Positions 13,668 to 35,375 of a DNA stretch of 64,000 nucleotides are shown piece by piece. Position numbers and translations under genes: made by a program. The stretch lies in the IMG/VR virus record IMGVR_UViG_3300032288_003197, positions 8,340 through 72,339 of that record. One strand, 5' to 3'. Position 1 is the stretch's first letter, and each line of letters begins with the position of its first letter. The stretch comes from a virus. The notes beneath the pieces were generated by a model. That model worked only from the letters and a program-made list of their open reading frames with translations, was not told where the DNA came from and searched no databases.

Positions 13668-13903
13668 TTTTTATAGACTGGATTGGGTACTTCTAGTTCA
13701 AACACATGATATTCGCTGAACCCTGAGTCTGTGTTTTTGAGCAGCTCTAATGTTCTTAATTGTTCAGCTTCTTCTCGACTGCCATAAAATCCTGCACCAA
13801 ATGTAACGCTGCTACCGCTGCCATACACATAGCTCATTTGAAGTCCGGTCTGTTTGATTACAGCATAGACCTTGAATGTGGGCAAGGGTTTAAGTGGTTC
13901 CAT
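13664..13903 (-). CDS. hypothetical protein
   Basis: Coupled ORF. Confidence 0.6.
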   Translation of the reverse strand: MEPLKPLPTFKVYAVIKQTGLQMSYVYGSGSSVTFGAGFYGSREEAEQLRTLELLKNTDSGFSEYHVFELEVPNPVYKK

Positions 13904-14372
13904 CTTTCAACACCTTGAATGTTTCTGCAGCCACCACACGTTTGCGCAGGCTTGAACTGGAGAAGCTGTGATCTCGACGGTTGAAAACAAGTTCGATACC
14001 TCTCTCCCCACATTCATACCTTCCAGAGAAATCTTTGTTTTCGTACTCTACTCCTAGGATGCGCACATCCACAGGTAATATCAACAATAGGTCACAGAGA
14101 TCTTGTTCGGTTTGGTACACAACAACTTCATCCACATAACGGCATGCTGCCAACTGAATTTGTCGCTCCACCACACTTTGAATAGGTTTGTTTTTGGTGT
14201 CAGGTCTATCGATAGTTGGGTCAGTTTGTAGTCCTGCGATGAGATAATCACAGTGATTTTTGGCTTCTGATAGCATTGCAATATGACCTGCATGCAACAT
14301 GTCAAAGGTCGAGAATGTGATGCCAATTTTCTTACCGTCTGCTTTGAGCTTTTTGATGTGATTAAAGATCAT
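13890..14372 (-). CDS. cytidylyltransferase (TagD-like, HIGH superfamily)
   Basis: STFDMLHAGH, YVDEV, SSSSLR. Confidence 0.85.
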   Translation of the reverse strand: MIFNHIKKLKADGKKIGITFSTFDMLHAGHIAMLSEAKNHCDYLIAGLQTDPTIDRPDTKNKPIQSVVERQIQLAACRYVDEVVVYQTEQDLCDLLLILPVDVRILGVEYENKDFSGRYECGERGIELVFNRRDHSFSSSSLRKRVVAAETFKVLKDGTT

Positions 14373-14761
14373 GATACTTCGCTCCGCCCCCCACCAATGT
14401 CGCGGGTACTGACATATTGACTACTGTATTTTTGTATGGCTTGTTCTTGTTCCCAAGTTTCCATCACAACATGCCTGCAGATATTTTGGAACCAGCGATC
14501 CACAATGTCTGCATCAGTGTCCGTGGGTTTCATCATGTAGCCAGCTTTGACCAGTCGTGCTACAAAAATCTCATTCCAGTCCAATTCAAATGCGCCCTGA
14601 TGCAGATTACTGGGATCAATGTCCATCTTGACAATGCTCACATACGGTTCATTGTTTTCTGTGGCTAGCTCTTTTTCGGTTTTCTCTGGTGCCCGTGGTT
14701 TGGGTTCAGATTTGACCTTGACTGGTTCAGGTTTTTTTCTAAAGCGATCAAATATCCCCAT
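14369..14761 (-). CDS. hypothetical protein
   Basis: Start MGIFDRF overlaps the queE stop. Confidence 0.7.
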   Translation of the reverse strand: MGIFDRFRKKPEPVKVKSEPKPRAPEKTEKELATENNEPYVSIVKMDIDPSNLHQGAFELDWNEIFVARLVKAGYMMKPTDTDADIVDRWFQNICRHVVMETWEQEQAIQKYSSQYVSTRDIGGGRSEVS

Positions 14762-15597
14762 TAGGTTCCCCATTCATTCTTGAAGAGTGGCACTTGAAGT
14801 CGATCACTGTACCGCCATCCTTTTCGCATTGCCATTTCTGCCACTGCACGATTGTTAAGGGTATACACCCGCTCAACACCACCAACGGGCATAATATAAA
14901 CAGGACCCGTAAAACCTGCCGCACGATATTCATCAACAGCTCGTTCCGCATCATGGAGATCCTCCTCAGTGGACACAACAAACTTTAGATATGTATATCC
15001 AACATCTTGATATTCGCAAACAATTTCTGGACAGATAGCATCTTCCCACCGCTCACCACTGCATGGAAGTTTGGCGCTTACGCTGAATGTGATTTCTCGC
15101 CCTACCTTGTTCCAGTCTTGCAAGTAATTTTTGAACTCTGGTGAGAGTTTTTGAGTGCCATTGGTTTCAAACGTAATCTCTGTTAGCTCACGCATGTCTG
15201 GATGATCCAACAAGTCTGGATAAGAACGTTGCCAACCCAACAATGGTTCACCACCTGTGATTACTAGATGTTCGTCCCGCCATTTCTTGTGCGGTAGCGA
15301 ATCCACAACAGCAAGGGCAACCGCATCAGTATCAAGAACGGGAGATAAATGACGAAAGCGAGGATCCCAACTAGCGTAACTATCACAACCTGTACTAACC
15401 AAAGGAAGAGACTTGTACTCGGTGTACTGATCAGGGTCAATATTGTTTGCTTCATTGCTTAGTTCTCCACGAGACATGCCAAAACCTGCACACTTGAAGT
15501 TGCAGCCAAAAACACGCAAGAATACACTGGGCACCCCCATGTAACGACCTTCGCCTTGAATTGAATAAAATAGTTCTGCTACCTTGAGTTTAGACAT
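14761..15597 (-). CDS. queE: 7-carboxy-7-deazaguanine synthase (radical SAM)
   Basis: ELFYSIQGEG, FLRVFGCNFKC ... GCDSY, ITGGEPLL, FETNGT. Confidence 0.9.
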   Translation of the reverse strand: MSKLKVAELFYSIQGEGRYMGVPSVFLRVFGCNFKCAGFGMSRGELSNEANNIDPDQYTEYKSLPLVSTGCDSYASWDPRFRHLSPVLDTDAVALAVVDSLPHKKWRDEHLVITGGEPLLGWQRSYPDLLDHPDMRELTEITFETNGTQKLSPEFKNYLQDWNKVGREITFSVSAKLPCSGERWEDAICPEIVCEYQDVGYTYLKFVVSTEEDLHDAERAVDEYRAAGFTGPVYIMPVGGVERVYTLNNRAVAEMAMRKGWRYSDRLQVPLFKNEWGT

Positions 15598-15660: not shown

Positions 15661-16557
15661 CTAGGCAATTTGGCCAATTGACTTTTGCACACCCGATTCA
15701 AACGACATGGGATTGTAGTCGGGCATGATGCTTTTGAGTTTTGATATATTGGGTCTACGGTTGGCTGTGCTTCCAGGTTTGCCGGGAGTGGTTTCCCAGT
15801 CAGCGTTGGGATGGCCCAAGGCAGTGGCAATGATTTTGGCTGCATCCATGATGGTGATTTCTCGGTCATTACCGATATTGATCACATCACGAGTTTGTGT
15901 TTCGGCACAGTAGATACTGGCTCTCACAGCATCTTCCACATGACAGAAACTTCTGGTCTCGTTGGCACCAAAGCACTCGAAGCGACCTGCTTTTATTTTT
16001 GTAATCTGATCGGCCAAGAAGTGTCCGGCCTTGCTGTTCTCTCCGTACACATTGAAATAACGCAACATCACATAGGGCAAGTTGCTGTTGGCCAGGTAAT
16101 TTTCACTGCATACCTTGGCCAGTCTGTAACTCCAGCGAGCATTGTGAATGTCTCGGATAGCAATGTCTGAGTGTTCAGGAACCGGGCTCACAGGATCGTC
16201 ACTGACAATTTCGCTACTGCTGGCATACACAATTTTTTTAAGACCGGGCAACCGGGCAGCCCATTCAAACACATTGATGTCACACACAAAGTTATTGCGT
16301 AGCACTTGGTTGGGACGCTCATAAAAGTTTTTGGTACCATTGATAGCACCATAGTGATAGATGTAGTCAAAGTCTTGCGGCAACCGGCTCAAAGCCGTGG
16401 GGTCGTTCAAGTCCATGGGCCGGAATTCATCACAGGGAGGTATGGTGCTACTACGACTGTGATTGTCAACAGCCCACACTGTGTGGCCGCTGTTTTTGAG
16501 TTGTCTACAGATTTCAGTGCCCAACAATCCACTGGCACCAGTTACTAAAATTTTCAT
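15661..16557 (-). CDS. NAD-dependent epimerase/dehydratase (extended SDR)
   Basis: GASGLLG, ASSSE, YRLAK (YxxxK), RYFNVYG, RSFCHVED. Confidence 0.88.
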   Translation of the reverse strand: MKILVTGASGLLGTEICRQLKNSGHTVWAVDNHSRSSTIPPCDEFRPMDLNDPTALSRLPQDFDYIYHYGAINGTKNFYERPNQVLRNNFVCDINVFEWAARLPGLKKIVYASSSEIVSDDPVSPVPEHSDIAIRDIHNARWSYRLAKVCSENYLANSNLPYVMLRYFNVYGENSKAGHFLADQITKIKAGRFECFGANETRSFCHVEDAVRASIYCAETQTRDVINIGNDREITIMDAAKIIATALGHPNADWETTPGKPGSTANRRPNISKLKSIMPDYNPMSFESGVQKSIGQIA

Positions 16558-17327
16558 TTGCTTACCTTGTTGTTGTCGTCAATCACACTTTGAATCAGTG
16601 TATAGGGCAGGCCAAGATTGTGAATCAAGTTGTTCCATGCACTGGTGTCTTTGGGCAAACAATGTCCGCCGTAACCACGCATGTTCTCATTGGCCATCAA
16701 GTAGTGTGGGTTGATACATTCTCTGCGAGTGATTGCATCATACACATTCTTGTAGTCAGCACCCAATTTCTTGCACACATCATATGTGATATTGGCAAAG
16801 GTCACGCTCATGGCATGATGCACGTTGTTGAAATATTTCACCACTTCAGCTTCAGTGGGACTCACACGAGCCACGGTCTTTGGGAAATGTCCGTGTATTT
16901 TTTCAATTAGGTCAAAATCTTCCTCGCGGTCACTGCCAATGATCAATAGGTCATGATTGTAAACAAAATCTGCTAGAGCTGTTTTGGCACGTAAAAATTC
17001 AGGCACACTGCAAATCTTTAAATTGGGATATGCTTCACTCAGTCGTCGACTGGTACCAGGAACCACAGTGCTCTTGATTGCTACCAATCCCGAGTACCGG
17101 TGTTGGTTCAATTCCGCAACCACTCGTTCAACAATGCTGGTGTCGCAATCTCCGTTGGCTGCTTGATTTGTGGGCACACTGAGAAACACACATTCGGCAT
17201 CCAGCACATCAGCAAGTTTGCTGCCTTCATAAGCCGGATCATAGAAACACATGTTGTGTCCAAGGTATTCAAGGCCTTCGTACACAGCCTTGCCCACTGT
17301 GCCTTTTCCAATAATTCCTATTTTCAT
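16554..17327 (-). CDS. UDP-glucose/GDP-mannose 6-dehydrogenase family protein, lacking the C-terminal domain
   Basis: GKGTVG, KSTVVPGT, PEFL, GYGGHCLPKD. Confidence 0.88.
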   Translation of the reverse strand: MKIGIIGKGTVGKAVYEGLEYLGHNMCFYDPAYEGSKLADVLDAECVFLSVPTNQAANGDCDTSIVERVVAELNQHRYSGLVAIKSTVVPGTSRRLSEAYPNLKICSVPEFLRAKTALADFVYNHDLLIIGSDREEDFDLIEKIHGHFPKTVARVSPTEAEVVKYFNNVHHAMSVTFANITYDVCKKLGADYKNVYDAITRRECINPHYLMANENMRGYGGHCLPKDTSAWNNLIHNLGLPYTLIQSVIDDNNKVSK

Positions 17328-17938
17328 TTTACATCCTTAAAAGTCATGTCTACGCAACTACTGGCCAAATTGGATTTGGCCAATTTGAAAATTTCTTCAG
17401 CCACCTGTTGGGGTTCTAGATAGTCCAACTTGGGATCAAATTGTTTGCCTGCTGTGGCCATCCGGGTGCGTGTTCGCACTGGGTTTAGTAAATCTACTTG
17501 AGTGCTGGATCCAGCAAAGTGATCTCTAGCCGATTCCCACAAATTGTATAAAGCAGCCTTGCTGGCACTGTACAGTGGATACAGCACTCGCCCGCCGGTG
17601 TAACTGCTGCTGCCGATCATGATGATTCTTGCGGGCTTGGCGGAATCTTGGTGCGACATATAGTAACTGACAATGGACCAATTGCTGCCAAAATTAATAT
17701 TCATGGTTGCTGTGTGAGTATCAGAGTGTCCGTTGACAAATATTCCAACACAGTTCACAACCACATCGGCCTGTGTGTAATGCAGTAGCCTAGCAACATC
17801 TTTGTGACTTTGTGCATACTCAAAATTTAGCTGATCGCGATTCACCGCAATCACACGATAACCTTGATCTTGAAACAGTTTGGCAGCGGCACTGCCAATC
17901 CCACCGTTTGCACCAAAGATCACCACAGTTCTTGTCAT
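17324..17938 (-). CDS. short-chain dehydrogenase/reductase
   Basis: GANGGIG, YSASKAA. Confidence 0.85.
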   Translation of the reverse strand: MTRTVVIFGANGGIGSAAAKLFQDQGYRVIAVNRDQLNFEYAQSHKDVARLLHYTQADVVVNCVGIFVNGHSDTHTATMNINFGSNWSIVSYYMSHQDSAKPARIIMIGSSSYTGGRVLYPLYSASKAALYNLWESARDHFAGSSTQVDLLNPVRTRTRMATAGKQFDPKLDYLEPQQVAEEIFKLAKSNLASSCVDMTFKDVK

Positions 17939-17940
17939 TG

Positions 17941-18354
17941 TTATACCGCGGTGATGTCATCTACTCGATAGGTGTCAGATTCGTAGTCTGCACCGCCTCT
18001 TGGTCCTTCTGCAAATGCAATAAAGGTGCATCCATCTGGCCCTGCCCGCATGGCATGAATTTCAAAAGGCTCGCTGATGATCATATCACCAGCACTGGCC
18101 TGTAACACATTTGGAGGCTGATCGGTAATATACAAGTTTTTACTGTAGTATGTCAACGTGCCCGACATCACAAAAGTGTATTGTGTAGTCAACTTGTGAT
18201 AGTGATTACCACGCACTGCACCGGGCTGGTTGGTAATCACGCAACCGTGATTCATGTTGGCCTGATAAAAAATGTCAGTGATACTGCCGCGATCGTCTTT
18301 GAATGCACCAAGTCCAGGCAATCCGTGTTGGCTATAGATGTTGTAAGTTTTCAT
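17941..18354 (-). CDS. cupin-fold nucleotide-sugar isomerase/epimerase (FdtA/WxcM/RmlC-like)
   Basis: DDRGSI, VRGNHYHK, EIHAM. Confidence 0.75.
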   Translation of the reverse strand: MKTYNIYSQHGLPGLGAFKDDRGSITDIFYQANMNHGCVITNQPGAVRGNHYHKLTTQYTFVMSGTLTYYSKNLYITDQPPNVLQASAGDMIISEPFEIHAMRAGPDGCTFIAFAEGPRGGADYESDTYRVDDITAV

Positions 18355-19577
18355 TGTGAAATAAATCTTGTGTTGGGGTTGATATTTAATATGGCGCGGC
18401 GCAGGCCCTCACCAATGTTCCAGCTCAAAATCAAAGCATATGGTTGTCGATGTTGGGCAAACTCTTCGTCTCCAACAACAGGAATTCTGGTCAACGGCGT
18501 AAACTTGCCCTGTTTGTGTTCACTGGCATCAGTTATGCAGTGAATCACTGTGTTGTCAAGCCCATGCCACTTCAGCCATGTGTTGGCTTTGGCGGCAGCC
18601 CCCACACCAATTACCACTGCATCGGGATCTTGTTCCAGCAAATTATAAAAATTGGCCAACCAGGTGACCTTGGCTTTTTCAAATTTGCGCTGTAGGCCTT
18701 GATAAAAATCGGGATCAAATAGTCCCATTTGGGTTTCTTGGCTGATGGCCTGTTGAATTTTGTCAGGCATGCCAGCACCTGTGGCATGTCTGGCGAATAC
18801 TCTCAAACTGCCGCCGTGATAGTCAACCACATCAAAATCAACTATTTCTAATCCGGCTGCCTGTAGCACACTGCTGGCCATTTTGACAGTGAAATAAGCG
18901 GGATGCTCATGATACACCATGTCAGTGAATCTGCCGGACTCAATCATGCTGAGCCAATACGGAACTTCAAACACAAACTCACCAGCAGGAGCCAGCAGTT
19001 TTGCCACACTGCGAGCAAATGCCACAGGGTTGTTGGCATGGTTGAACACATTGTTGGCAATCACAGTTTGGGCTGTTCCATGTCGCGATCGTATCAGTTC
19101 AGCGGTGCTGTTATCAAACAAGGCATGCACAGTTTCAACACCTCGAGCCTGGCTCAATGCACACATTTCTGCACTGCTGTCCACAGCCACTGCTTGATCA
19201 AACTGCGAAACAAGATACCCGTCGTTGCTGCCAATCTCAACCACAAGTCCCGAACGCCCACGATGTTTGATTGTTTGAACATATTCGTCCCAGTGGTCTC
19301 TAGCAGTCTTGCTGTTGCTGGAGGTGTAACTGTAACTGTAGAGATTGTAACGGTCTTCGGCTGAACTTAGATAGCCCAACTGTATACTGCCAGTGTCACT
19401 GTTCAAGAAAACCTGTAGTGGAAACACTGGTTCACTGAGATGAAGTTGGTCGGCCCTGACAAAAGTGTCAGCATAGGCATGCTGACCAAAATCAAGTATT
19501 TTTACAACCGGCTGTTGGGAAACTACACATTTGGTAACCGCATCACTCACAGTTATATTATTTTTTGACAACACCAT
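18351..19577 (-). CDS. NDP-hexose C-methyltransferase (class I SAM-dependent)
   Basis: VEIGSNDGYL, NNVFNH, YHEH, HGGSLR, GAAAKANT, KQGKFTP; start uncertain. Confidence 0.85.
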   Translation of the reverse strand: MVLSKNNITVSDAVTKCVVSQQPVVKILDFGQHAYADTFVRADQLHLSEPVFPLQVFLNSDTGSIQLGYLSSAEDRYNLYSYSYTSSNSKTARDHWDEYVQTIKHRGRSGLVVEIGSNDGYLVSQFDQAVAVDSSAEMCALSQARGVETVHALFDNSTAELIRSRHGTAQTVIANNVFNHANNPVAFARSVAKLLAPAGEFVFEVPYWLSMIESGRFTDMVYHEHPAYFTVKMASSVLQAAGLEIVDFDVVDYHGGSLRVFARHATGAGMPDKIQQAISQETQMGLFDPDFYQGLQRKFEKAKVTWLANFYNLLEQDPDAVVIGVGAAAKANTWLKWHGLDNTVIHCITDASEHKQGKFTPLTRIPVVGDEEFAQHRQPYALILSWNIGEGLRRAILNINPNTRFISQ

Positions 19578-20448
19578 TCCTGACATCCTCACTTCTTTGA
19601 TCCGGTTCAACGGATATTATTTGGCCTTGGTCGTCTAGTCTCATCACGAATTGGCTCATTTGTCGATTGACATCTAGTTCGGCCAATTTTTGCCAGGCAT
19701 AGTTTTTGCCGCTTTTGACACCTTCCCACCAAGAAGTATCCAGGCCCAGTGTTTTCATGTATTCAGCAATGGCGTTGCATCGTTCCACTCGAAGAAATGT
19801 ATTTTGCGGATAATGAAAGTCAATGGGGTTGGTTGGGTCACCTTCAAATCTCACCTTGGGCTTGAGCGGATCCTTTTCATCCTTGGTGAGTTCGACTTGA
19901 TTGTGCACAACATCAACGTCAACGACCTGCATGAGATCCAACAGAAAAGCAATCTGACTCAACTCAGCATCAATCATTTGATGTCTGCTGAGCTCTTGTG
20001 TGAGCTCATACCATGCTCGAGGAACTATGGGAAAAATACTGTAGGGATGATCGTTGTGAGTGTGAACTTTCAGCAATCGAAATTGGCCGGTGTATTGACC
20101 AATAACAGTGTCCCAGCCCTGCGTCTGCATCACAGCATCGTCATTCCACACAAACAGCCAGTCTGACGAAGTTGACTTGGCCAAATGATTGTAATATCTA
20201 TTGAGTCCAGCATAGCCCATGCTTTTGAACACCTGAGCCTCGTAGACAACTTCGTGCTGATCTAAAAATGGTTGAATAACTTTGGCAAAGTGATCCAGGC
20301 CCACCTGATCGTCGTCATCAAAGCCAAACAACAATTGTATGCGTGAAACGTCGTCGGCTAGATTTACAATGCTGGTCACACTAGAAGTCAATGCATCAGT
20401 GCGACTGCGGGTGGGCAGCAAAACTGCTATGCTGTATTCGTTGGTCAT
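19558..20448 (-). CDS. GT-A (GT2-like) glycosyltransferase
   Basis: VLLPTRSR N-terminus and WNDD (DxD-like) motif. Confidence 0.75.
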   Translation of the reverse strand: MTNEYSIAVLLPTRSRTDALTSSVTSIVNLADDVSRIQLLFGFDDDDQVGLDHFAKVIQPFLDQHEVVYEAQVFKSMGYAGLNRYYNHLAKSTSSDWLFVWNDDAVMQTQGWDTVIGQYTGQFRLLKVHTHNDHPYSIFPIVPRAWYELTQELSRHQMIDAELSQIAFLLDLMQVVDVDVVHNQVELTKDEKDPLKPKVRFEGDPTNPIDFHYPQNTFLRVERCNAIAEYMKTLGLDTSWWEGVKSGKNYAWQKLAELDVNRQMSQFVMRLDDQGQIISVEPDQRSEDVRNGVVKK

Positions 20449-20475: not shown

Positions 20476-20979
20476 TTATGCAAATAAATCTTCGTTCCAC
20501 TCACGGTGGCCTTCACGGAAAGCCATGTTGGCCTGTGTTTCGCGAACTTCTACTCTATAGCACCACAAGCGAGCAGCCTCTCCTGGCCCCCACATTTCGG
20601 GAATGTAAACACCGTTGACATATTTGTAAAGCATGTCACTAAGACCTTCACAGCCCAATTTAGGCAGCACCACAATTTTGGCCATGTTACGCTCTTGTAG
20701 CAATTGGAACGTGGCCATCTCAGGGTCGTCTTGTGCCACAATAAGTGTGTGGTCAAACTGATCTTCTAATGTCTTCTTTAGTTCTTTGAGTCCACCATAA
20801 TCAGCCGCCCAGTTGCGAACGTCTAGATCGTTGGTGCCAAAGTAAAATTTCATAGAAAAACTATAACCATGAATGAGATTACAGTGACTATCAGCACGCC
20901 ATTGGCGATAAGCGCAGGGAAAAGCATCATGATACTCCTTTGTGCTGGTATATTTGTAAGTTACGGGTAGATTTGCCAT
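20476..20979 (-). CDS. queD: 6-carboxy-5,6,7,8-tetrahydropterin synthase
   Basis: HCNLIHGY, FDHTL, VEVRET (T-fold QueD motifs). Confidence 0.88.
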   Translation of the reverse strand: MANLPVTYKYTSTKEYHDAFPCAYRQWRADSHCNLIHGYSFSMKFYFGTNDLDVRNWAADYGGLKELKKTLEDQFDHTLIVAQDDPEMATFQLLQERNMAKIVVLPKLGCEGLSDMLYKYVNGVYIPEMWGPGEAARLWCYRVEVRETQANMAFREGHREWNEDLFA

Positions 20980-21059: not shown

Positions 21060-21464
21060 TTAGTTGGGTTTTTGATAGCCTGCAGTTTTGTAATTCTGCT
21101 GACCAAAAATAACACCACGAACACCGCCAGTGGGATCGTCACAGTCGCCGTGTTTGCGTGGAATCAAATGCACATGTGGATACATCACTGTTTGTCCAGC
21201 TGCTTGACCTTGATTTAGGCCAATGTTGAAACCATCGCAATGATTGTTTGCTACCCAGTCACGACCGGTAGACAAAGCAAGTTCCATGGCTTCTGCAATT
21301 GATTGGTCGGTGTTGAATCGAGGCACAAACAGCAAATGACCTTGTGTGACCGGATAAGCATCTCGAAACACTGCCACGTGTAAATTGCCAAGTTCAGGAA
21401 CGCTGTGGGTCCAAGGTGCCACATTGGCCTCTTGTGCGGCTGTCAACGTTGTGTATAAAATCAT
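21060..21464 (-). CDS. HIT family nucleotide hydrolase
   Basis: AGQTVMYPHVHLIPR. Confidence 0.9.
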   Translation of the reverse strand: MILYTTLTAAQEANVAPWTHSVPELGNLHVAVFRDAYPVTQGHLLFVPRFNTDQSIAEAMELALSTGRDWVANNHCDGFNIGLNQGQAAGQTVMYPHVHLIPRKHGDCDDPTGGVRGVIFGQQNYKTAGYQKPN

Positions 21465-23924: not shown

Positions 23925-24626
23925 TTATCGTGGTGCAAAGTCCTGTTGCAGTTTGATATTGTCAAAGAATTCTTTCTTCACGCTTTGGTCTGTTTTAAAG
24001 GCACCGTGAAGCACTGTGGTCTGGGTGAGACTACTATGAGCCATAATACCACGATTCTCACAACAACCATGGGTAGCTTGTATATAAACGGCCACATCTT
24101 GAGATCCGGTTGCGCTCCTGATTTCACTAGCGATATCCATACATAGTTCTTCTTGGAGAGTACCACGTCGTGCACACCACTGGGCAATACGGGTGTACTT
24201 GGAAAGACCAATGAGTTTGGGACCAGCAATGATTCCAATATAAGCCACACCCGAGACAGGTTGGTGATGATGGCTACACATGCTCTTAAGCTCCGAACGC
24301 ACCACAAGCATACCGTCGTATGCTCCTTCCGTGTCGTTCGGGAAAGCCGTTGCATTAGGGCTCTCCTCGTACCTACCAGCCATGATTTCATATACATACA
24401 TCTTTGCTAAACGTCGGGCTGTGCCTTGTGAGTTCGGATCATTGAATCGATCAATAATCAAACTATCTAGTACCCCTTCAAACTTGCCAGTGAGTTCATC
24501 CACTAGCAAGTCTTTCTCTTTGTCAGTGATGTATTCACTGATGTTGTCTCCGGCCCAATAACGTTTGTCTGCGTCCGTAAGGCGTTTGCGAATTACTTGT
24601 GATAGATTCAAACTGTTGTCGGTCAT
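23925..24626 (-). CDS. folE: GTP cyclohydrolase I
   Basis: SMCSHHHQP, IGLSKYTR, LQEEL, HGCCENRG. Confidence 0.95.
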   Translation of the reverse strand: MTDNSLNLSQVIRKRLTDADKRYWAGDNISEYITDKEKDLLVDELTGKFEGVLDSLIIDRFNDPNSQGTARRLAKMYVYEIMAGRYEESPNATAFPNDTEGAYDGMLVVRSELKSMCSHHHQPVSGVAYIGIIAGPKLIGLSKYTRIAQWCARRGTLQEELCMDIASEIRSATGSQDVAVYIQATHGCCENRGIMAHSSLTQTTVLHGAFKTDQSVKKEFFDNIKLQQDFAPR

Positions 24627-24627
24627 T

Positions 24628-25215
24628 TTAGTCCTTGATGGTGATTGTTCTTAAATCTGGATATACAACTTGTCGTGGTGGCGGGCAGTATTCTTTCAAA
24701 CCTTCCAGTAAAGCAATTCCTTGCATGGCTTCTTCAGGGGTAGGCTTGTAGTGATAACCAACTTCAAATTCATGCTGTGTTGCCCAGGGTGATATACTTA
24801 GATCGCGACCATCATACCGCATGCGAATCAGTCTACGATATGCTGTCTCGTCATCCAACAGTATAGCACCTCCGCGGCCTATGTGTAAAGGCTTGTCATG
24901 CCCAAAACTCAAACATTGCATTTGCCCAGTTCTATACATATTGGGTTCCAGTCGGCGAGCACTATCCCAAATTCGGGTACCGTGGAATTGATATTCGCCT
25001 GTCCACTCTTCTTCGCGGTAGTAGTATTTGATGCCCAGCTTGTGCATGGTCATGGGGATGCTCAAGTAGCTGTAAGGAGTCATTACCAATTCTTGCACAC
25101 GATCATACCGCAAACACAGTTCAATGGCATGAGTGCAGCAGTCGGTCATGACTGCATAAGGTGCACCAGTGAACTCAGCCAGCTCTTGTTCAAATTTTAA
25201 AATCTTATCGAACAT
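24628..25215 (-). CDS. short DegT/DnrJ/EryC1-like PLP-dependent aminotransferase
   Basis: FEQELAEFTG, CTHAIEL, WDSA, LSFGHDKP (PLP Lys), GGAIL; only ~195 aa. Confidence 0.75.
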   Translation of the reverse strand: MFDKILKFEQELAEFTGAPYAVMTDCCTHAIELCLRYDRVQELVMTPYSYLSIPMTMHKLGIKYYYREEEWTGEYQFHGTRIWDSARRLEPNMYRTGQMQCLSFGHDKPLHIGRGGAILLDDETAYRRLIRMRYDGRDLSISPWATQHEFEVGYHYKPTPEEAMQGIALLEGLKEYCPPPRQVVYPDLRTITIKD

Positions 25216-26152
25216 ACCAATTCCATGCATGGTTGATAACATCATTTAAATTGTGATTGCGCCAGGCCTGGCCCACTGCTGTATCAAATTTGTCGGGGTT
25301 GGCAGTGAGCATGGCAGGATCGCCTGCTCTTGCAGACACAACATCAATTTCTGGCAGCCGTCCCACAACCTCTTGAACACTGTTGATTATTTCACGCACA
25401 CTGGTGCCTGACCCTTGTGCAAGATTGTAAGCGCCACTCTTGATACTGGAATTCAAGGCCAAGATGTGTGCATGGGCAATATCATCCACGTGCACATAAT
25501 CTCTAACACAGGTACCATCTGTAGTGGGATACCCGTCGCCGTAGATGGAAAATTTGCTGTTGTCTCGTGTGGCTTCGAGTAATCGAGCAACCACGTGTGT
25601 TGCCCCAGGTTCTTGACCGTGCCTGCACTGGGGGTCAGCACCGCAGGCATTGAAATAACGAAATGCCACGTAGTCCAGGCCATATGCTCGATGGTAACTG
25701 GCCAAGATTTGTTCTATCATGCGTTTGCTCTCGCCATAGGGAGATATTGGTTCGCAAGGATCAACTTCGTGACAAGGATTCATGATGGGTTCACCGTAAA
25801 CAGCAGCACTGCTACTAAACACAAACCTCACCCGCGGTAGAGCCAGTCGCACAATGTCCAACAATTTTAATGTCTTTACTACATTGTTGTTGTAGTATTC
25901 GGCTGGGTTTTTCATGCTTGGTCCAACCAAACTGGTGCCGGCACAGTGTATGATGGCTGTGGGCTGTACTTCAATCATTTTGGTCAATGCTTCTTTTTCT
26001 GCAAAATCGCCTTGCACAAATTTAGTAAATGCTGACGCAATGCCAGAGTGAGCAGGACGCAGGTCAATGCCCATGACCTTTTGTCCAGCATCGGCCAGTT
26101 TCAATGCAATTTGTCCACCAATATAACCAGCGGCTCCTGTTACAACAATCAT
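25205..26152 (-). CDS. galE: UDP-glucose 4-epimerase-like
   Basis: GAAGYIG, FSSSAAVYG, YGESK, RYFNACGA, DGTCVRDYVHV. Confidence 0.9.
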   Translation of the reverse strand: MIVVTGAAGYIGGQIALKLADAGQKVMGIDLRPAHSGIASAFTKFVQGDFAEKEALTKMIEVQPTAIIHCAGTSLVGPSMKNPAEYYNNNVVKTLKLLDIVRLALPRVRFVFSSSAAVYGEPIMNPCHEVDPCEPISPYGESKRMIEQILASYHRAYGLDYVAFRYFNACGADPQCRHGQEPGATHVVARLLEATRDNSKFSIYGDGYPTTDGTCVRDYVHVDDIAHAHILALNSSIKSGAYNLAQGSGTSVREIINSVQEVVGRLPEIDVVSARAGDPAMLTANPDKFDTAVGQAWRNHNLNDVINHAWNWYVR

Positions 26153-26164
26153 GATACTCCTGCT

Positions 26165-27379
26165 TTAGTTTTCAATTTTTACAACCGGATATTTTTCGTG
26201 AGCAACGTGGTCACGATAGCGATTGCCCGCTCGATTCCACTGCTCACCTTGTCCAAGAATAATGTCAACCACACGATCCACAGTGGCATTGTTCCAGTCG
26301 CTAATAAGTCCCATGTTGTGATGTGGTTCTCGCAATAGGTTTTGTAACTTGTGATAAGCATCATCTATGCTCCATGGTACATAAAGACGGTTGGGGTCAT
26401 TAGCAAAGGTTTCAGGGAAAGAGCGATACGCTGGATACAATACATTGCATCCAAGAGTATCGGCCTCTGATACGGTGTTTGAAACCCAGTCCTGTAGAGC
26501 ACAATTAAACAACACACGAGTATCGTTGACAAGAGCATAATACTGATCCTTCTTCAAGTTATCATAGATCTTGAGCCGGCCCTCTGCCTCCATACGGCGG
26601 GCACGAACAATATACTCTGGGTTATTGGATCTGAGAGGTCCGCCACTGAAAATTGCAAATTCACATGGTTCCTTGGCAAGCTCACCATACATTTCAATAA
26701 GGTCCATGAAAAAGCCAGGTTGCTTTTCTTGGTCAAAGCGAGCTGCGAAGCCAACCCTGCGGGCCCGCTGAGCAAAGGGCGTAATTTTTGTCCGTCCTCC
26801 AATGCGCTCAAGAACTTCTTCTTTTCCAAATGCAAGACCGGAAATGTTGTAGATCGGAGCAGTCCACCCAGCAATCCGCATGTGAGCGACCATTTCTTCG
26901 TTGGTTGCAAGAACTGCGCCACCACTGAACGCCACCACCTCATTGACCATTTGTTCATATAGATTCATCCACTTGCTCATACCCCACACATGCACAAAGT
27001 CATCGGGATCAATGGCCTGTGCCAAACAGCGAACATAGATTCGGGGACATTGTTCGCGTGGAATCTGGTTCATGATGTAGCCCAGACTTTCAAAGCCAGG
27101 CTGGAACATATCTTCAAAGTAGATCACATCCTCACCGGTGACTTCTCCGTTCTTCATGAGTTGAACCAAGTTCATCATTTGGCTCATGGAGAAGTAACTG
27201 CGGCCATGTGCATCCAACACTTGCCCCACACTGATAGCCTGTGTGTTGTCAATGGTGTTGCCAGGCACATAAACAACGTCCAAGCCACGGCGCTCAAACA
27301 CACGACGATTCCACTCAGTGAGTTGCAGTGTGTATCGGGCTTCGTAACTTTCCAAGCCCATGTAATACAGTTTTCTCAT
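26165..27379 (-). CDS. GT-B fold glycosyltransferase (GT4-like)
   Basis: ARFDQEKQP and VSEADTLGCNVL (E-A-x-x-x-G motif); start moved to MRKLYY. Confidence 0.7.
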   Translation of the reverse strand: MRKLYYMGLESYEARYTLQLTEWNRRVFERRGLDVVYVPGNTIDNTQAISVGQVLDAHGRSYFSMSQMMNLVQLMKNGEVTGEDVIYFEDMFQPGFESLGYIMNQIPREQCPRIYVRCLAQAIDPDDFVHVWGMSKWMNLYEQMVNEVVAFSGGAVLATNEEMVAHMRIAGWTAPIYNISGLAFGKEEVLERIGGRTKITPFAQRARRVGFAARFDQEKQPGFFMDLIEMYGELAKEPCEFAIFSGGPLRSNNPEYIVRARRMEAEGRLKIYDNLKKDQYYALVNDTRVLFNCALQDWVSNTVSEADTLGCNVLYPAYRSFPETFANDPNRLYVPWSIDDAYHKLQNLLREPHHNMGLISDWNNATVDRVVDIILGQGEQWNRAGNRYRDHVAHEKYPVVKIEN

Positions 27380-27381
27380 AC

Positions 27382-27606
27382 TCAACCCCTAGAGGTAGCA
27401 AATCGACGCAGGTCCTCACTCCACATGTTCTTGGCGTTCTTGCCTTGTGTGAATTTGTTGAACTGTTGCCATGCATAGCTCTTGAAGTTGTAGAGATCTG
27501 ACTCATTGTAACGATACCCGTAGTCTTGACAGAACTCCAAGAATTTGTCAAGGTCGTTGAAAATCTCAGCAACACGGGGATTGGGTTTGAACGATGGCTT
27601 GGCCAT
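27382..27606 (-). CDS. hypothetical protein
   Basis: AAGGA SD; compact ORF. Confidence 0.7.
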   Translation of the reverse strand: MAKPSFKPNPRVAEIFNDLDKFLEFCQDYGYRYNESDLYNFKSYAWQQFNKFTQGKNAKNMWSEDLRRFATSRG

Positions 27607-27615
27607 TTTATTTCC

Positions 27616-28071
27616 TTAGATATTAACAGAAAGTGAAGGACGGTGAGTTTCGTATTTGATGAGAGCCCCGTTTTCACCATCTTCGGAGACCTCAATCCAG
27701 ACCGCACGGTCAGGATAGCGTGATGCAATTTGAATGTACAGATCGTCTGCCATCATTTCGCAAGATTTGTAATCGAGTTGGAGTGTGCCCGACTCGTAGA
27801 GTTTTTGGAGCCATCGTTTGAATTGGATGAACTCGATGTCTCGATCGTTGTGTACGACATCGATCCACACCCGGAAGTGGAAGATATGACGGTGAGGGCT
27901 ACCAAGGAAACTAACATCATACTCATCGCCCGTCGCAAGTTCGGGCGCTGTGGCGGCTGCTGGGTAACAGTGGATTCCTTCTTTTTGGAAGGTAACCCAG
28001 ATTTTTCGTTCTGCATGTTGCATGATCCTTTCTTTTTGTTCTACCAGTGCTTGTTCTCGTTGTGTGTTCAT
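27616..28071 (-). CDS. dpdL: QueD-paralog T-fold protein, DpdL-like (CDG decarboxylase candidate)
   Basis: FLGSPHRHIF fits the LxxxHRHxF signature as I recall it for DpdL; also SCE and VSEDGENG; located next to dpdA. Confidence 0.7.
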   Translation of the reverse strand: MNTQREQALVEQKERIMQHAERKIWVTFQKEGIHCYPAAATAPELATGDEYDVSFLGSPHRHIFHFRVWIDVVHNDRDIEFIQFKRWLQKLYESGTLQLDYKSCEMMADDLYIQIASRYPDRAVWIEVSEDGENGALIKYETHRPSLSVNI

Positions 28072-28481
28072 GATTTTAATGCTTCCAGGGTTATGATTTG
28101 ACCAATGGCTTGGCCAAGATCTTGATTGTCACCGATTACATGTAGTTCATACACACTGTCTCCGGTGCGTCGATCAGGTCTACGTGTTTCAATCACTGTG
28201 CCACCATTGGCACGATACACTTCAAATCTGATGCCAGTGGCGCTGATTCTACAGGTGTCTTCTGATATTGCAATATCTTCTTGACGCTGATGGTCATCGG
28301 CCAGGCTCCAGGTGACCAAGCCTCTGATGATTCGCTTAAACATATTGGGTCCTTTTGTTTGATATTTTCTTACTGGTTTGACTGCGGTACCGGTACTGAT
28401 GGCGGTGCCATAGATTTTGTTCATTCTATGTTGTTTGCTACTGGTTTTAGCACCTATAACTTGTGGATATGTTGCCATCAC
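28068..28481 (-). CDS. hypothetical protein
   Basis: Coupled ORF; start uncertain. Confidence 0.6.
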   Translation of the reverse strand: MMATYPQVIGAKTSSKQHRMNKIYGTAISTGTAVKPVRKYQTKGPNMFKRIIRGLVTWSLADDHQRQEDIAISEDTCRISATGIRFEVYRANGGTVIETRRPDRRTGDSVYELHVIGDNQDLGQAIGQIITLEALKS

Positions 28482-28993
28482 AGCACCCGATCTTTGGTGT
28501 ATTCGGACCAGTCGGTGAACTGTGATCTGGTCATCAGGTCATGAATGCTGTGACACCAAACACCAGGGTTGGAATGATCAAAGTCGGTATCATCCAGTTT
28601 GAGAGTGGCATTGTAGCCCAGCAAACCAATGTAAGGCAATTTGGCTGAAATCATGGGAATAAAATATCTGTTCTCACACAGGCCAGATTCGGCTAGACCT
28701 TCCACACAACTGATGTCTAGATCCAATGTACATTGAATATTTTTTCCCAGAAAGTGAAAAATCATGAGTTCCCACTTGGCCCATTCGCCGCCATCATTGA
28801 CTTTAAGATTGGGAAAACTGTGATTGGCACCAAAATAAATGTGCTCAATACTGTGATTCTCATCTAGATATTTTTGAATATCAGCAACCGACTGGACTCC
28901 CACAACAAACAGAGTTGTTTTACCATGTGCAGGTGTGCGCTCAACTTCGGTGCCAATAAAAAAGTTGGCTGTTTCGTGCCCGTGTCTATTCAT
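28478..28993 (-). CDS. hypothetical protein downstream of dpdA
   Basis: FFIGTEVERTPA, HIYFGANHSF, NPGVWCHS; coupled to dpdA. Confidence 0.7.
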   Translation of the reverse strand: MNRHGHETANFFIGTEVERTPAHGKTTLFVVGVQSVADIQKYLDENHSIEHIYFGANHSFPNLKVNDGGEWAKWELMIFHFLGKNIQCTLDLDISCVEGLAESGLCENRYFIPMISAKLPYIGLLGYNATLKLDDTDFDHSNPGVWCHSIHDLMTRSQFTDWSEYTKDRVL

Positions 28994-30557
28994 TGTGAAT
29001 CGCTTTTTCCATTTGATCCAATGTGGTAGTGTCTAATATTACACTATCATCGCTGGTGTTGTCAACATCATCTTCTTCAAAACTGAACAGTGCATTGAAT
29101 TGAGTACGAGCATTCTTGGTTTTCTTGCCTTTGAAACCTCGTGTGCCCACAATCTCCATCCAATACGTATCGTACAATTCTATAATATCTTCGGCAGTTT
29201 GTCTATCCGGTGCGGCAAATATGGCTTCCACAATATCTTCAAATCGAGCATAGTCTCCGGTGCTACGACGCATCATGGCCGGATGTTCTCCTGCATCAAA
29301 ACGTCGATTGGCTTCTTGCACAGCGGTCAGGTGCATGTAAACATTGTGGCCCATTAGCAACGCATAACTGAAACTATCCCACGACGTTTTGCCTTCCTTG
29401 CCGTTTTTATTTAGATCGCCAGGCCGGTAGATACAGATATCTTTCATCTGCAACATGTTGCTGATGGGACTGTCTTGCCAACGTGGATAGATGCCGTCTG
29501 CAACTACCCCTTGTGCCCAAGGTCTTGTGTCTGTGGCGTATTTTTTGTCATCGGCTGAAGGAGCCATGCGATACGACCACTTTGAGTCGTGTTCAAATAC
29601 GTTTTCAAAGTAGACCTGTCCGTTTGCTGTTGCAAGGAACGGTGAGGCGCAGTCAAACGAGATTGTGAATTGTGGATTGACATATTTTCTTACGGCCCTT
29701 TGGATCACAGTTAATAAAACAGCCCACTCCAGTTTGGAGGTTCCCAAGAAGTGCATCCAGTCATGAACACCTTCTTGAAGTAGATTGTCGTAGCGCAGAG
29801 CCACCAGGCGTTTGAGCACCAGGTGCACGTCGCACATGTTCTGGCCGCCCATGGCCCAACCGTCAAAGTGAGTGTTGGGATACTTTACAGGGTCACAGTA
29901 CTCTTTCATGATCTGGTACCATTCTTCAGCAGATGTGTGATTGTCGCCCTGCAACACATTCAAGAATCGGGCGCCGCCATTGTTCTTGCCCCGGCGGTTG
30001 GCCATGAAGTATTCGTTGTTGAACTTGGTGGCTGCCACTGCTTCTTCCAGTGTGGTGATACCGCACGCCTGGCTGGCTTCTCGACTGTGTATGACCCATG
30101 TGGGGATATCCAAGATCATGCCATAGTCGGCCACATTGTCCAGCCAATTCAGAACGAGTTGCCGCTTCTTTTGGGCCCGAGCACAACCCGAGTTGGCCTT
30201 CCAATCTCCTTCCCAAAGTCCCTTAGCAATCTGAAAGCCGCCCGAGTCTCCCAATATAAAAGTCCCAGGTTCCCGGTTTCGTACCATGTCCTCTGACCAG
30301 TCCTGCTTGGCAAGATCAAGGTTGGCATGTCCACCCGAATAAAGCGACCACTTGTAAGGAAACAAGCCTTTGGTAGAGTTGAGCCAATTAAGTTGTTCCA
30401 TATCCGTGAGGCCCTGCGGAAATCGTGCGGGATCCACATAAGGTTCATTCCTTTGCTTGCCTATGAATGTGGCATAGAAGCCGGAGATAGCCGGAAGAAA
30501 CACAGCATAGTCCAACTGCTTGGCAGTCAAGTTGTCTCGAACTACGGGCTCGGTCAT
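28986..30557 (-). CDS. dpdA: TGT-like DNA guanine transglycosylase (DpdA family)
   Basis: GDSGGFQ, MILDIP, NVLQG, GWAMGG, HFLG and SFDCAS TGT motifs, in folE/queD/queE context. Confidence 0.85.
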   Translation of the reverse strand: MTEPVVRDNLTAKQLDYAVFLPAISGFYATFIGKQRNEPYVDPARFPQGLTDMEQLNWLNSTKGLFPYKWSLYSGGHANLDLAKQDWSEDMVRNREPGTFILGDSGGFQIAKGLWEGDWKANSGCARAQKKRQLVLNWLDNVADYGMILDIPTWVIHSREASQACGITTLEEAVAATKFNNEYFMANRRGKNNGGARFLNVLQGDNHTSAEEWYQIMKEYCDPVKYPNTHFDGWAMGGQNMCDVHLVLKRLVALRYDNLLQEGVHDWMHFLGTSKLEWAVLLTVIQRAVRKYVNPQFTISFDCASPFLATANGQVYFENVFEHDSKWSYRMAPSADDKKYATDTRPWAQGVVADGIYPRWQDSPISNMLQMKDICIYRPGDLNKNGKEGKTSWDSFSYALLMGHNVYMHLTAVQEANRRFDAGEHPAMMRRSTGDYARFEDIVEAIFAAPDRQTAEDIIELYDTYWMEIVGTRGFKGKKTKNARTQFNALFSFEEDDVDNTSDDSVILDTTTLDQMEKAIHNE

Positions 30558-31279
30558 TACTTGCTTTGTGCAGGAAGGGTGTAGTTATAAACTGCCAGGC
30601 CAGAATCCACAGTGATTTCAGCGGCACCATCATCCGAGATGCGTACTTTCTTGTCACCGGTCAAGTCCATGATGCTGACAAATTGCTTGGCGGGCCAGGA
30701 CCATGCACGTTTGAGTTGGCCGCTTACGCCAGGGTGGAACACAAAGTTGCCCGAGTGCGTGGAGTGATCACCAAAGAAGAATTTGAGATCACCGCCATCG
30801 GTCTTGGCTTGGAAGTTGGCTTCTTCTGCGTTGGCGCTCATCTGCCACTTCAGTCTCTGAATGGCAGCATTGGTGGGTTCAAACTCAATGTGCCAAGTCA
30901 CAGGACGAATCTTGGCAGTTTTGAGTTTTTCTTTTACCACTCCCGACGCCATGAAGCGATAGTTGTTTTTAAAGTCGCCCACTTTGTTTTCAAAGTTGAT
31001 ACCATCGGGTTCACCAGTTGAGCCTTTGGTGATACTGAGTTTGCTGTCTTCACGATACTCTTGCAAGTTCAGCAGTGTTTTGAGTTTGCCTAGATTGGGC
31101 ATACCAAATGTTCCCACGAAGTCGGCCACAGGGTTGTGAAAGTTGCCGCGAATCACAACACTCAGGTCTTCGGCCAGACCCACAATTTCAGTTTTGCTGG
31201 TATCGCCAACAATTTTGATCAAGTCAATGCAGCCAAGATCATAAGTGTGTTCTACTAAATCTAACAGGTAATCTCTCAT
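30557..31279 (-). CDS. putative sliding clamp (gp45/PCNA-like)
   Basis: 240 aa alpha/beta protein ending YNYTLPA, close to PolB; call rests on size and context. Confidence 0.5.
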   Translation of the reverse strand: MRDYLLDLVEHTYDLGCIDLIKIVGDTSKTEIVGLAEDLSVVIRGNFHNPVADFVGTFGMPNLGKLKTLLNLQEYREDSKLSITKGSTGEPDGINFENKVGDFKNNYRFMASGVVKEKLKTAKIRPVTWHIEFEPTNAAIQRLKWQMSANAEEANFQAKTDGGDLKFFFGDHSTHSGNFVFHPGVSGQLKRAWSWPAKQFVSIMDLTGDKKVRISDDGAAEITVDSGLAVYNYTLPAQSK

Positions 31280-35300: not shown

Positions 35301-35375
35301 TGCTCGTTTTGGACCTCAAGGTAGCGAATCTCTTGGTCCAGGCAGCAGCCGCCCACTCGGTCCTAAGGGCTGAGT
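35301..35375. ncRNA. candidate structured RNA containing rRNA-matching segments
   Basis: Two hairpins plus exact matches AAGGTAGCGAA and CGGTCCTAAGG (23S) and CAGCAGCCGC (16S) on the plus strand. Confidence 0.55.

Follow-up and report, generated by a model that had tools for sequence, protein, structure and literature searches.

Eight 7-deazaguanine modifications of DNA are recorded in PMC10516641, none of which bears a sugar, and there the DNA of phage phiST is described as carrying plain 2'-deoxy-7-deazaguanosine (dDG), the deoxynucleoside of 7-deazaguanine (DG). The same source proposes, but does not demonstrate, that DpdL decarboxylates 7-carboxy-7-deazaguanine (CDG) to DG; DpdL, a paralogue of QueD, has the motif LxxxHRHxF in place of the latter's CxxxHGH, with three histidines and two glutamates conserved. 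Escherichia coli expressing dpdL together with dpdA, from either phiST or phage ACP17, contained no dDG, and missing enzymes were suggested (PMC10516641). A second dDG phage, the fully DG-substituted Vibrio phage VP1, has been described along with host glycosylases that attack deazaguanine DNA (10.1101/2025.10.29.685425). The present analysis concerns a locus in which genes of this kind are packed together with a gene for a glycosyltransferase (GT) of 406 amino acids (aa), here GT406: the block at positions 23925 to 30557 of a 64,000-nucleotide stretch of viral DNA, termed the window, which corresponds to bases 8340-72339 of the 72,339-bp IMG/VR record IMGVR_UViG_3300032288_003197. The block is best explained as a module for the modification of guanine in phage DNA, and the linkage of GT406 to the deazaguanine pathway is strongly supported by the distribution of the two among phages.

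Sugar-decorated pyrimidines in DNA include derivatives of hydroxymethyluracil and base J. Hydroxymethylcytosine (hmC) in T-even phages is also sugar-decorated (PMC12191111). The system proposed here would resemble that of the T-even glucosyltransferases AGT and BGT in using a GT-B enzyme to transfer a sugar from a uridine diphosphate (UDP) carrier to a modified base, with sugars that may vary by strain. It would differ in that the base is a purine rather than hmC, the GT is GT4-like, and no ThyA-type hydroxymethylase is found in four near-complete relatives of the window's record. Compared with the DpdA/DpdL route of phiST, the window shares FolE, QueD, QueE and DpdL in the absence of QueC, an enzyme of the tRNA-guanine transglycosylase (TGT) superfamily, and a position among replication genes. 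By contrast, it adds a GT4-type GT, GalE and sugar-nucleotide genes where phiST has no GT, and its transglycosylase is a 523-aa form without a match to phrog_887 or the Pfam TGT family. The gene clusters for huimycin and dapiramicin likewise group FolE, QueD and QueE with a GT. That of huimycin, HuiG, places a sugar on a 7-deazaguanine-type base, using the 2-amino group of a base derived from preQ0 as the acceptor for N-acetylglucosamine (GlcNAc); by contrast, actinomycetes make these compounds from preQ0 as soluble metabolites, for which QueC is needed, and there is no DNA-insertion enzyme (PMC7439116). PA5oct (Wroclawvirus), the phage with a modified-guanine system treated in PMC12191111, has homologues of the window's PolB, p240, TGT-like protein (36% identity), GT406, DpdL (56%) and QueE, and so PA5oct carries the triad of DpdA, DpdL and GT. 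Its cassette differs in having no full GalE, DegT-like gene or sugar module nearby, but only a 172-aa epimerase fragment.

What appears to be new here, on comparison of sequences, is a GT4-type GT, dependent on a nucleoside diphosphate (NDP) sugar, that is inherited with DpdL whichever DpdA family is present. The dDG route was already known; the combination of a Dpd-type deazaguanine module with a GT of its own seems to be new. A literature search, which did not extend to supplementary data, found neither a glycosylated 7-deazaguanine in DNA nor a DpdL-linked GT, in agreement with a first interpretation of the window made from its letters alone (the sequence-only reading), which knew of no such base.

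The tightly packed run of nine open reading frames (ORFs) noticed in the sequence-only reading is present, on the minus strand throughout: a TGT-like gene (28986..30557), p171 (28478..28993), p137 (28068..28481), DpdL (27616..28071), p74 (27382..27606), GT406 (26165..27385), GalE (25205..26152), a DegT-like gene (24628..25245) and FolE (23925..24626). On the 3' side of FolE there follow, in order, genes for an FG-GAP-repeat lipoprotein, a HIT-family protein, QueD, a 296-aa ORF, a sugar module, QueE and a nucleotidyltransferase (to about 13890), such that deazaguanine and sugar-nucleotide genes are interleaved across approximately 17 kb. The core order was studied in 80 related IMG/VR loci, the window's clade, each gene being scored where the flanks suffice. 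It is retained to an extent that is beyond chance: DpdL is present in 76/76 loci, p74 in 80/80, p171 in 69/69, the TGT-like gene in 68/68, GalE in 70/71, the DegT-like gene in 61/63 and FolE in 58/59. Within the clade GT406 is the most conserved protein of the block (82-93% identity), compared with 59-97% for the TGT-like protein and 52-85% for DpdL.

The association between GT406 and DpdL extends well beyond this clade. For loci chosen from metagenomes by GT sequence alone, DpdL adjoins GT406 wherever this could be assessed, abutting it in most cases. In addition to the 76 clade loci, two distant queries from the GT family recovered 21 loci, with GTs 28-39% identical to that of the window among those compared; DpdL is found in 20, the 21st being cut at the start of the GT (20/20 assessable), while QueE is found in 19 and FolE in 18. 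Two further samples gave 69/69 and 5/5 assessable loci, although the former, from query P0145, mostly drew the window's wider clade (GT 53-85% identical) and so cannot be treated as independent of the clade sample. Of six further family queries, two (P0248 and P0134) recovered no viral loci. The phages with both genes span approximately 46 to 470 kb. A DpdA-like gene accompanies the pair in 20 of the 21 distant loci and belongs to one of four sequence families: fifteen represent a single family, three the ACP17 type, and one each the 523-aa type of the window and the BCSR5 type. All six members of the fifteen that were scanned match phrog_887, annotated as queuine tRNA-ribosyltransferase.

Isolated phages show the same pattern. 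DpdL was detected in 29 of 50,697 phage records, and the GT homologue of phage X1 matched 18 of these 50,697, all of which fall within the 29; they include PA5oct, ACP17, X1, BCSR5, Phosso and BUCT-ZZ01. The window's own GT, used as a query against the isolates, matches BUCT-ZZ01 only. In a jackhmmer search, homologues of GT406 lie no more than 10 kb from DpdL in six of ten isolate lineages (BUCT-ZZ01, BCSR5, X1, PA5oct, ACP17 and Phosso). The sequence-only reading had named co-occurrence of the GT family with dpdA and dpdL as a check, and independent segregation as the outcome that would count against it: DpdL stands beside the GT in every assessable locus, no such segregation is observed, and the confinement of the GT to DpdL loci and DpdL isolates supports a functional link with the deazaguanine pathway.

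The GT of ACP17, when used as the query, retrieves the same 18 records and, at 24.6% identity, those of five jumbo phages of Xanthomonas and Erwinia, which the X1 query misses. In these five (PhiXhv-15, at L093 6747-9981, PhiXhv-12, PhiXhv-16, Ep026 and Ep032, of about 228 kb) the genes for GlmS, a BshB-like deacetylase and a BshA-like GT4 enzyme are consecutive, with no deazaguanine genes near the GT. They were considered as counter-examples and set aside as a neighbouring GT4 group; counted in, they would make 5 of 23 records without DpdL. The row of GlmS, deacetylase and GT4 genes may represent another sugar-based modification or a metabolite pathway.

On its predicted fold and the profile matches of its relatives, GT406 belongs to a family of glycosyltransferases that is clearly GT4-like. 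PF00534 is matched by 35 of 50 aligned family members (E <= 0.01), and the BUCT-ZZ01 homologue, 64% identical to the window's GT, passes the cut-offs of both PF13692 and PF00534. The AlphaFold2 (AF2) model has a mean predicted local distance difference test score (pLDDT) of 94.5 and the two Rossmann domains of the GT-B fold. The matches found by Foldseek in the PDB include BshA, MshA, an archaeal glycogen synthase (GlgM), SenB, PimA and LmbT, with E values of around 1e-12 to 1e-9; that to BshA (5d00) has an E value of 1.1e-12 and template modelling (TM) scores of 0.60/0.67. Within BFVD the model comes closest to a 370-aa protein without a name and to the GT1-domain protein of ACP17. Across 50 sequences of 29-57% identity, R216, E220 and K221 are invariant and D299-x7-E307 nearly so; the arginine and lysine pair and the latter motif are taken to correspond to the R/K pair and the EX7E-type motif with which GT4 enzymes bind nucleotide sugars. 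Of the 13 invariant columns, eight fall within the N-terminal half, usually the acceptor side of GT-B enzymes, and this bias fits one acceptor shared by the family. The family is large: exhaustive searching gave 764 clusters (50% identity, E <= 1e-3), of which 192 have E <= 1e-30. A predicted complex of GT406 with DpdL, run without controls, scored 0.00 and counts neither way.

The sequence-only reading labelled the first gene of the block dpdA. The TGT-type character of its 523-aa product is borne out by motifs, profile alignment and predicted fold, but not by a match to any curated family. The motifs GDSGGFQ (containing D104), HFLGTS and SFDCASP (containing D302) do not vary among 17 homologues that are 59-89% identical. 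In hhalign the protein aligns to the candidate DpdAs of X1, BUCT-ZZ01, ACP17 and BCSR5, of which only that of X1 is annotated as a queuine tRNA-ribosyltransferase, with a probability of 90.7% (E 1.2e-6), and both aspartate motifs are matched, the counterparts of the three motifs being DSGGLQ, HxLGVGS and SYDSTTH. The two aspartate motifs, DSGG[F/L/Y]Q and a second aspartate located after the HxLG strand, are presumed to have the catalytic roles that the TGT literature gives them. The AF2 model (pLDDT 81.5) has as its best seven matches in the PDB only bacterial TGT, ArcTGT (the archaeosine enzyme) or QTRT2, with E values of 1.5e-7 to 3.3e-4. The protein is thus a candidate DpdA-like member of the TGT superfamily with a predicted TGT-type TIM barrel. 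Among isolates, PA5oct-like jumbo phages of Pseudomonas and the Sinorhizobium phage Phosso have the nearest homologues (36% identity), which lack annotation; those of the PA5oct-like phages adjoin a GT and DpdL. A local jackhmmer search did not link the protein to DpdA3 of phiST, and by its sequence it may represent a further DpdA subfamily outside DpdA1-4.

Overall, at least four sequence families of DpdA are found beside the DpdL and GT cassette, joined to one another by annotation, motifs and fold rather than by a single test. Alignments of the phrog_887-type and ACP17-type families give an hhalign probability of 0.75% (1% with a single sequence), and searching PDB sequences with a profile built from the phrog_887-type alignment gave no meaningful match. 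In complete GT-bearing phages of about 80 kb the DpdA is of the phrog_887 type and directly follows the cassette; the ACP17 type was found in 0/5 of these and DpdA3 of phiST in 0/4, with phiST itself as a positive control. The pair of DpdL and GT seems to move between phages with different transglycosylases.

The 151-aa ORF between p137 and p74 is DpdL, as judged by homology and motif, as the sequence-only reading had suggested. It matches phrog_17812 (E 1.7e-36), carries the DpdL signature as LGSPHRHIF, and in tblastn is 36% identical to the DpdL of phiST (CGPG_00067; E 2e-9) and 59% identical to that of ACP17 (E 6e-40), while H34, H60, H62, E80, E105 and E130 are invariant in 19 sequences. 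It occurs together with the DpdA-like gene and with FolE (PF01227, 132.8 bits; phrog_2197; NF006824), QueD (20476..20979, minus strand; PF01242, 55.6 bits; phrog_2389, E 2e-35), which is the 6-carboxy-tetrahydropterin (CPH4) synthase, and the CDG synthase QueE (14761..15597, minus strand; phrog_2076, E 1e-51; weak Pfam Radical_SAM match; 48% identical to the annotated QueE of BUCT-ZZ01). QueC was over the cut-off in none of the four near-complete relatives (the window's record itself being 21% complete), and therefore, judged by its gene content, the pathway should end at CDG or DG, before preQ0.

Several arrangements around DpdL in other phages were also observed. In the Vibrio phage Bakedbeans, which has no GT406 family member, DpdL forms the C-terminal third of an annotated 383-aa protein (L089 9245-10396), the N-terminal 250 or so residues having no Pfam match. 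An AAA_28 (NadR-like kinase) protein adjoins DpdL or the GT in BCSR5 and two metagenomic lineages (L091 10399-11325, L106 9266-10483, L112 9196-10482), with a small ATPase in the same place in phiST, which could hint at a nucleoside or nucleotide step. The Synechococcus phage BUCT-ZZ01, whose cluster also holds a DpdA-like gene, DpdL and two GTs, has a PF00156 phosphoribosyltransferase between QueE and QueD (L083 7093-7554) that could make a deazapurine nucleotide.

GalE is a UDP-glucose 4-epimerase (TIGR01179, 301.2 bits with a cut-off of 262.3; PF01370, E 3.6e-55), and a second lineage (L108-L110) likewise has a gene of this family directly after its GT. From its adjacency, GalE likely feeds the GT in the window's clade, which makes UDP-galactose or UDP-N-acetylgalactosamine the likely donor. 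The DegT-like gene encodes 205 aa (195 aa from the fourth methionine) and matches PF01041 with 56 bits (cut-off 19.8) in two stretches, residues 13-46 and 107-193 aligning to 30-63 and 174-257 of 382-aa sugar aminotransferases. K118, in SFGHDK, aligns with the pyridoxal phosphate (PLP) lysine of SFHxxK. About 125 C-terminal residues of the 382-aa relatives are lacking, as the sequence-only reading had seen along with the retained lysine, and some 50 internal residues are missing as well, a full fold-type I PLP enzyme of this kind having around 360-390 aa. On this alignment the protein is a relative of the DegT/DnrJ/EryC1 family and not a standard member. With jackhmmer no homologue was found in ten isolate loci or the 21 distant loci, the window's own clade being the only one in which the gene was seen.

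Further sugar genes lie beyond FolE. The 296-aa ORF (19558..20448, minus strand), conserved next to QueD in the clade, is a possible second GT, matching phrog_14945 ('glycosyltransferase', E 1.7e-6) over residues 3-125 only and no Pfam family. It is followed by a five-gene sugar-nucleotide module (15661..19610, minus strand; assigned from Pfam matches and phrog_9148): an NDP-hexose C-methyltransferase, a cupin, a short-chain dehydrogenase/reductase, a truncated UDP-glucose dehydrogenase and an epimerase/dehydratase. The module is accessory: of 42 assessable clade loci, 5 have the C-methyltransferase. With the DegT-like gene added, it may resemble the Ugd/ArnA/ArnB route to amino-pentoses. A gene for a protein resembling sugar-phosphate nucleotidyltransferases (13890..14372, minus strand; PF01467, E 5.3e-12; phrog_7878, E 1.6e-31) ends the series. 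Elsewhere, a GT2-like ORF directly follows the GT406-type gene in locus L100, and BUCT-ZZ01 has a second, GT1-like gene. The second GT-like gene and the accessory module hint at longer or strain-variable glycans.

Taken together, these genes suggest the following scheme. FolE, QueD and QueE, by their family membership, would make CDG from GTP, and DpdL would convert this to DG in the manner proposed in the literature. The DpdA-like enzyme, as its clustering with FolE, QueD, QueE and DpdL suggests, would insert the 7-deazaguanine into DNA, swapping the base after replication. GT406, supplied by GalE, would glycosylate the 7-deazaguanine, so that virion DNA would contain a deazaguanine with a sugar. 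The transfer might be to dDG after its insertion into DNA, in which case none of the four DpdA families would have to differ; in favour of this, four unrelated families accompany a single GT family, which is most simply understood if each inserts the small base DG (as DpdA3 of phiST presumably does). Alternatively the GT might act on the free base, which would fit its small-molecule GT4 relatives and its tighter coupling to DpdL than to any DpdA family. The sugar could be attached at N2, as in huimycin, at the 7-carboxyl of CDG, or at C7/C8. Host glycosylases that attack deazaguanine DNA provide a plausible selective reason for an extra protective group, and the likely benefit would be a second layer of protection against nucleases and glycosylases recognising such DNA, like the glucose on hmC in T-even phages. 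From the gene content and its distribution, a probability of about 50% is given to the proposal that a sugar is added to 7-deazaguanine, either as the free base or in DNA, and ends on deazaguanine in DNA. More tentative is its extension to all phages with DpdA, DpdL and GT, both the uncultivated clade of about 350 kb and PA5oct, ACP17, X1, BCSR5, Phosso and BUCT-ZZ01: these would carry a sugar-bearing 7-deazaguanine, linked through N2, C7/C8 or an ester, with sugars diversified between strains by extra GTs and swappable modules. Such sugars might be amino, C-methyl-branched or uronic, diversified as in the glucosylation arms race of the T-even phages.

A number of observations weigh against a glycosylated deazaguanine in DNA. 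The GT family was found in none of four whole records of DpdL phages, phiST, RHph_I1_18, Bakedbeans and Ahp1, in a profile search for which PA5oct was a positive control; because these lack the GT and phiST DNA carries plain dDG, the GT is dispensable for DpdL-type modification as such. The sampled loci are non-independent, coming mostly from a few abundant lineages. The best Pfam match of the window's own GT, PF13524, is below threshold at 17.5 bits (cut-off 25), the enzymes nearest to it among solved structures have small molecules, lipids or glucans as substrates, and no DNA glucosyltransferase, be it AGT, BGT or another, is among its best 50 matches in the PDB; in BFVD a cyanophage 'DNA alpha-GT' appears only at rank 16, with a TM score of 0.54 that reflects generic GT-B similarity. 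The family is acidic (median isoelectric point (pI) 5.7), a weak point given that the DpdA-like protein is acidic too. The latter has no Pfam, NCBIfam or PHROG match, PF01702 giving nothing even at an E value of 10, a profile search of PDB sequences with its alignment found nothing meaningful, and the TM scores of its structural matches are modest at 0.32-0.50; a scan of the entire viral record likewise gave no match to the Pfam TGT family. The DegT-like protein, truncated and clade-specific, may be inactive. As DG has no hydroxyl, the usual site of O-glycosylation is not obvious, and N-, C- or ester-linked transfer would be unusual for a GT4 enzyme. Finally, the literature search found no analytical chemistry for any GT-carrying phage. 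The overall interpretation offered by the sequence-only reading is upheld in part: the linkage of the GT to the deazaguanine pathway is strongly supported by both loci and isolates, and a sugar on a deazaguanine in DNA is a proposal.

Other explanations were weighed. One is that the GT acts on a soluble intermediate, whether a pterin, free CDG or free DG, and that the DNA keeps plain dDG, the glycoside serving as a short-lived carrier, for storage or solubility, or as a sink for by-products. This would suit the small-molecule GT4 enzymes among the structural neighbours (BshA, MshA, SenB, LmbT and the pteridine glucosyltransferase 5ze7, at rank 44), the linkage of the GT to DpdL more than to any single DpdA family, and the fact that FolE and QueD-like enzymes make pterins, with the cyanobacterial tetrahydrobiopterin glucosyltransferase as a parallel; dDG is also the sole DpdL-linked base measured to date, in phiST (PMC10516641) and VP1 (10.1101/2025.10.29.685425). 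However, phiST makes dDG without a GT, implying that DG synthesis needs no glycoside carrier, and 5ze7 is only one of 438 GT-B matches with E <= 0.001. The phage-encoded GalE, second GT-like gene and strain-variable sugar genes suggest instead an end product under diversifying pressure, and a soluble acceptor with unglycosylated DNA is on balance considered unlikely. It is a still less probable explanation that the GT, GalE and sugar genes serve the envelope, virion proteins or another metabolite and are co-located with a plain dDG system through early-gene regulation. Phage GT4 enzymes are often tied to envelope or protein glycosylation, the window's sugar module resembles O-antigen and amino-sugar pathways, and an FG-GAP lipoprotein is encoded inside the block; yet a target of this type would leave unexplained why the family lies beside DpdL in every assessable locus, in phages of about 46-470 kb with four DpdA families, and why the isolates that have it are all DpdL phages, while the nearest GT outside the family, the PhiXhv-15-like one, has a different context.

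The sequence-only reading had also allowed for modification of a second base, and this option is weakened. The GT would then glycosylate a base such as a hydroxymethyl-pyrimidine, the deazaguanine being an independent modification. T4 GT-B enzymes do glucosylate hmC, and among the genes of this phage are a T4-like PolB and one resembling DsbA. By contrast, a ThyA-type hydroxymethylase was found in 0/4 near-complete relatives (TET/JBP-type oxygenases were not searched for), making a T4-style hydroxymethyl-pyrimidine acceptor unlikely, and the GT tracks DpdL rather than any pyrimidine-pathway gene. This alternative is therefore judged very improbable. The identification of GT406 as a T4-like DNA glucosyltransferase was rejected, AGT and BGT being absent from the 50 structural matches listed and the ThyA family from the four relatives.

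The remaining ORFs of the block are less readily interpreted. None of p171 (171 aa), p137 (137 aa) and p74 (74 aa, basic, pI 9.1) has a Pfam, NCBIfam or PHROG match. p171 recurs with the module, its homologues adjoining the cassette in ACP17, L094, L098, L113 and L114 in jackhmmer searches, while an Atlas search for it was uninformative, all scores being below 0.85. p137 is accessory, present in 9 of 72 assessable clade loci, and p74, between DpdL and GT406, has no homologue detected by jackhmmer in the isolate loci or distant metagenomic loci of other lineages. The FG-GAP-repeat protein (790 aa, with a lipoprotein signal; 21489-23861) is also accessory, occurring in four related loci only, and the HIT-family protein (21060..21464, minus strand; PF01230, E 8.7e-9) is encoded in 47 of 52 clade loci.

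The block had been placed directly after the clamp and polB. PolB does lie upstream, at 32252-34912; the clamp is not supported by searches of PDB sequences, in which the 240-aa and 314-aa ORFs match no solved clamp. The former, p240 (30557..31279, minus strand; phrog_12062), is a possible clamp located between PolB and the TGT-like gene. It has homologues in the same position in PA5oct and Phosso, annotated as 'structural protein' and 'sliding clamp beta' respectively, the Phosso homologue being the only one with a sliding clamp label. On the 5' side of PolB are two very large ORFs, at 35375-38851 and 44225-48331, encoding 1158 aa (with a LysM domain) and 1368 aa.

Nearly every long ORF of the window is on the minus strand. 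CheckV estimates the completeness of the record at 21%; as IMG/VR relatives sharing the block span 317-347 kb at 89-100% completeness, the window is a fragment of a jumbo phage. A nucleotide search with the block gave no match among isolate phages. The clade is very abundant, the 523-aa TGT-like protein alone having more than 7,550 clusters at 90% identity.

Even if no sugar reaches the DNA, the conserved pairing of DpdL and GT still needs an explanation. We know of no glycosylated purine in natural DNA. If the proposal holds, the base would be the first such purine and a new chemical class of DNA hypermodification, and a function would be assigned to a GT family of at least 764 protein clusters. 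The tight pairing with DpdL, with the GT of ACP17 sitting between dpdL and dpdA, could then explain why dDG was not reconstituted in E. coli from the dpdL and dpdA of that phage. The triad is present in six cultured phage lineages, and hence the proposal is directly testable. A positive outcome would matter, too, for the encounters of PA5oct-like phages, a subject of therapy research, with restriction enzymes, END nucleases and glycosylases specific for deazaguanine.

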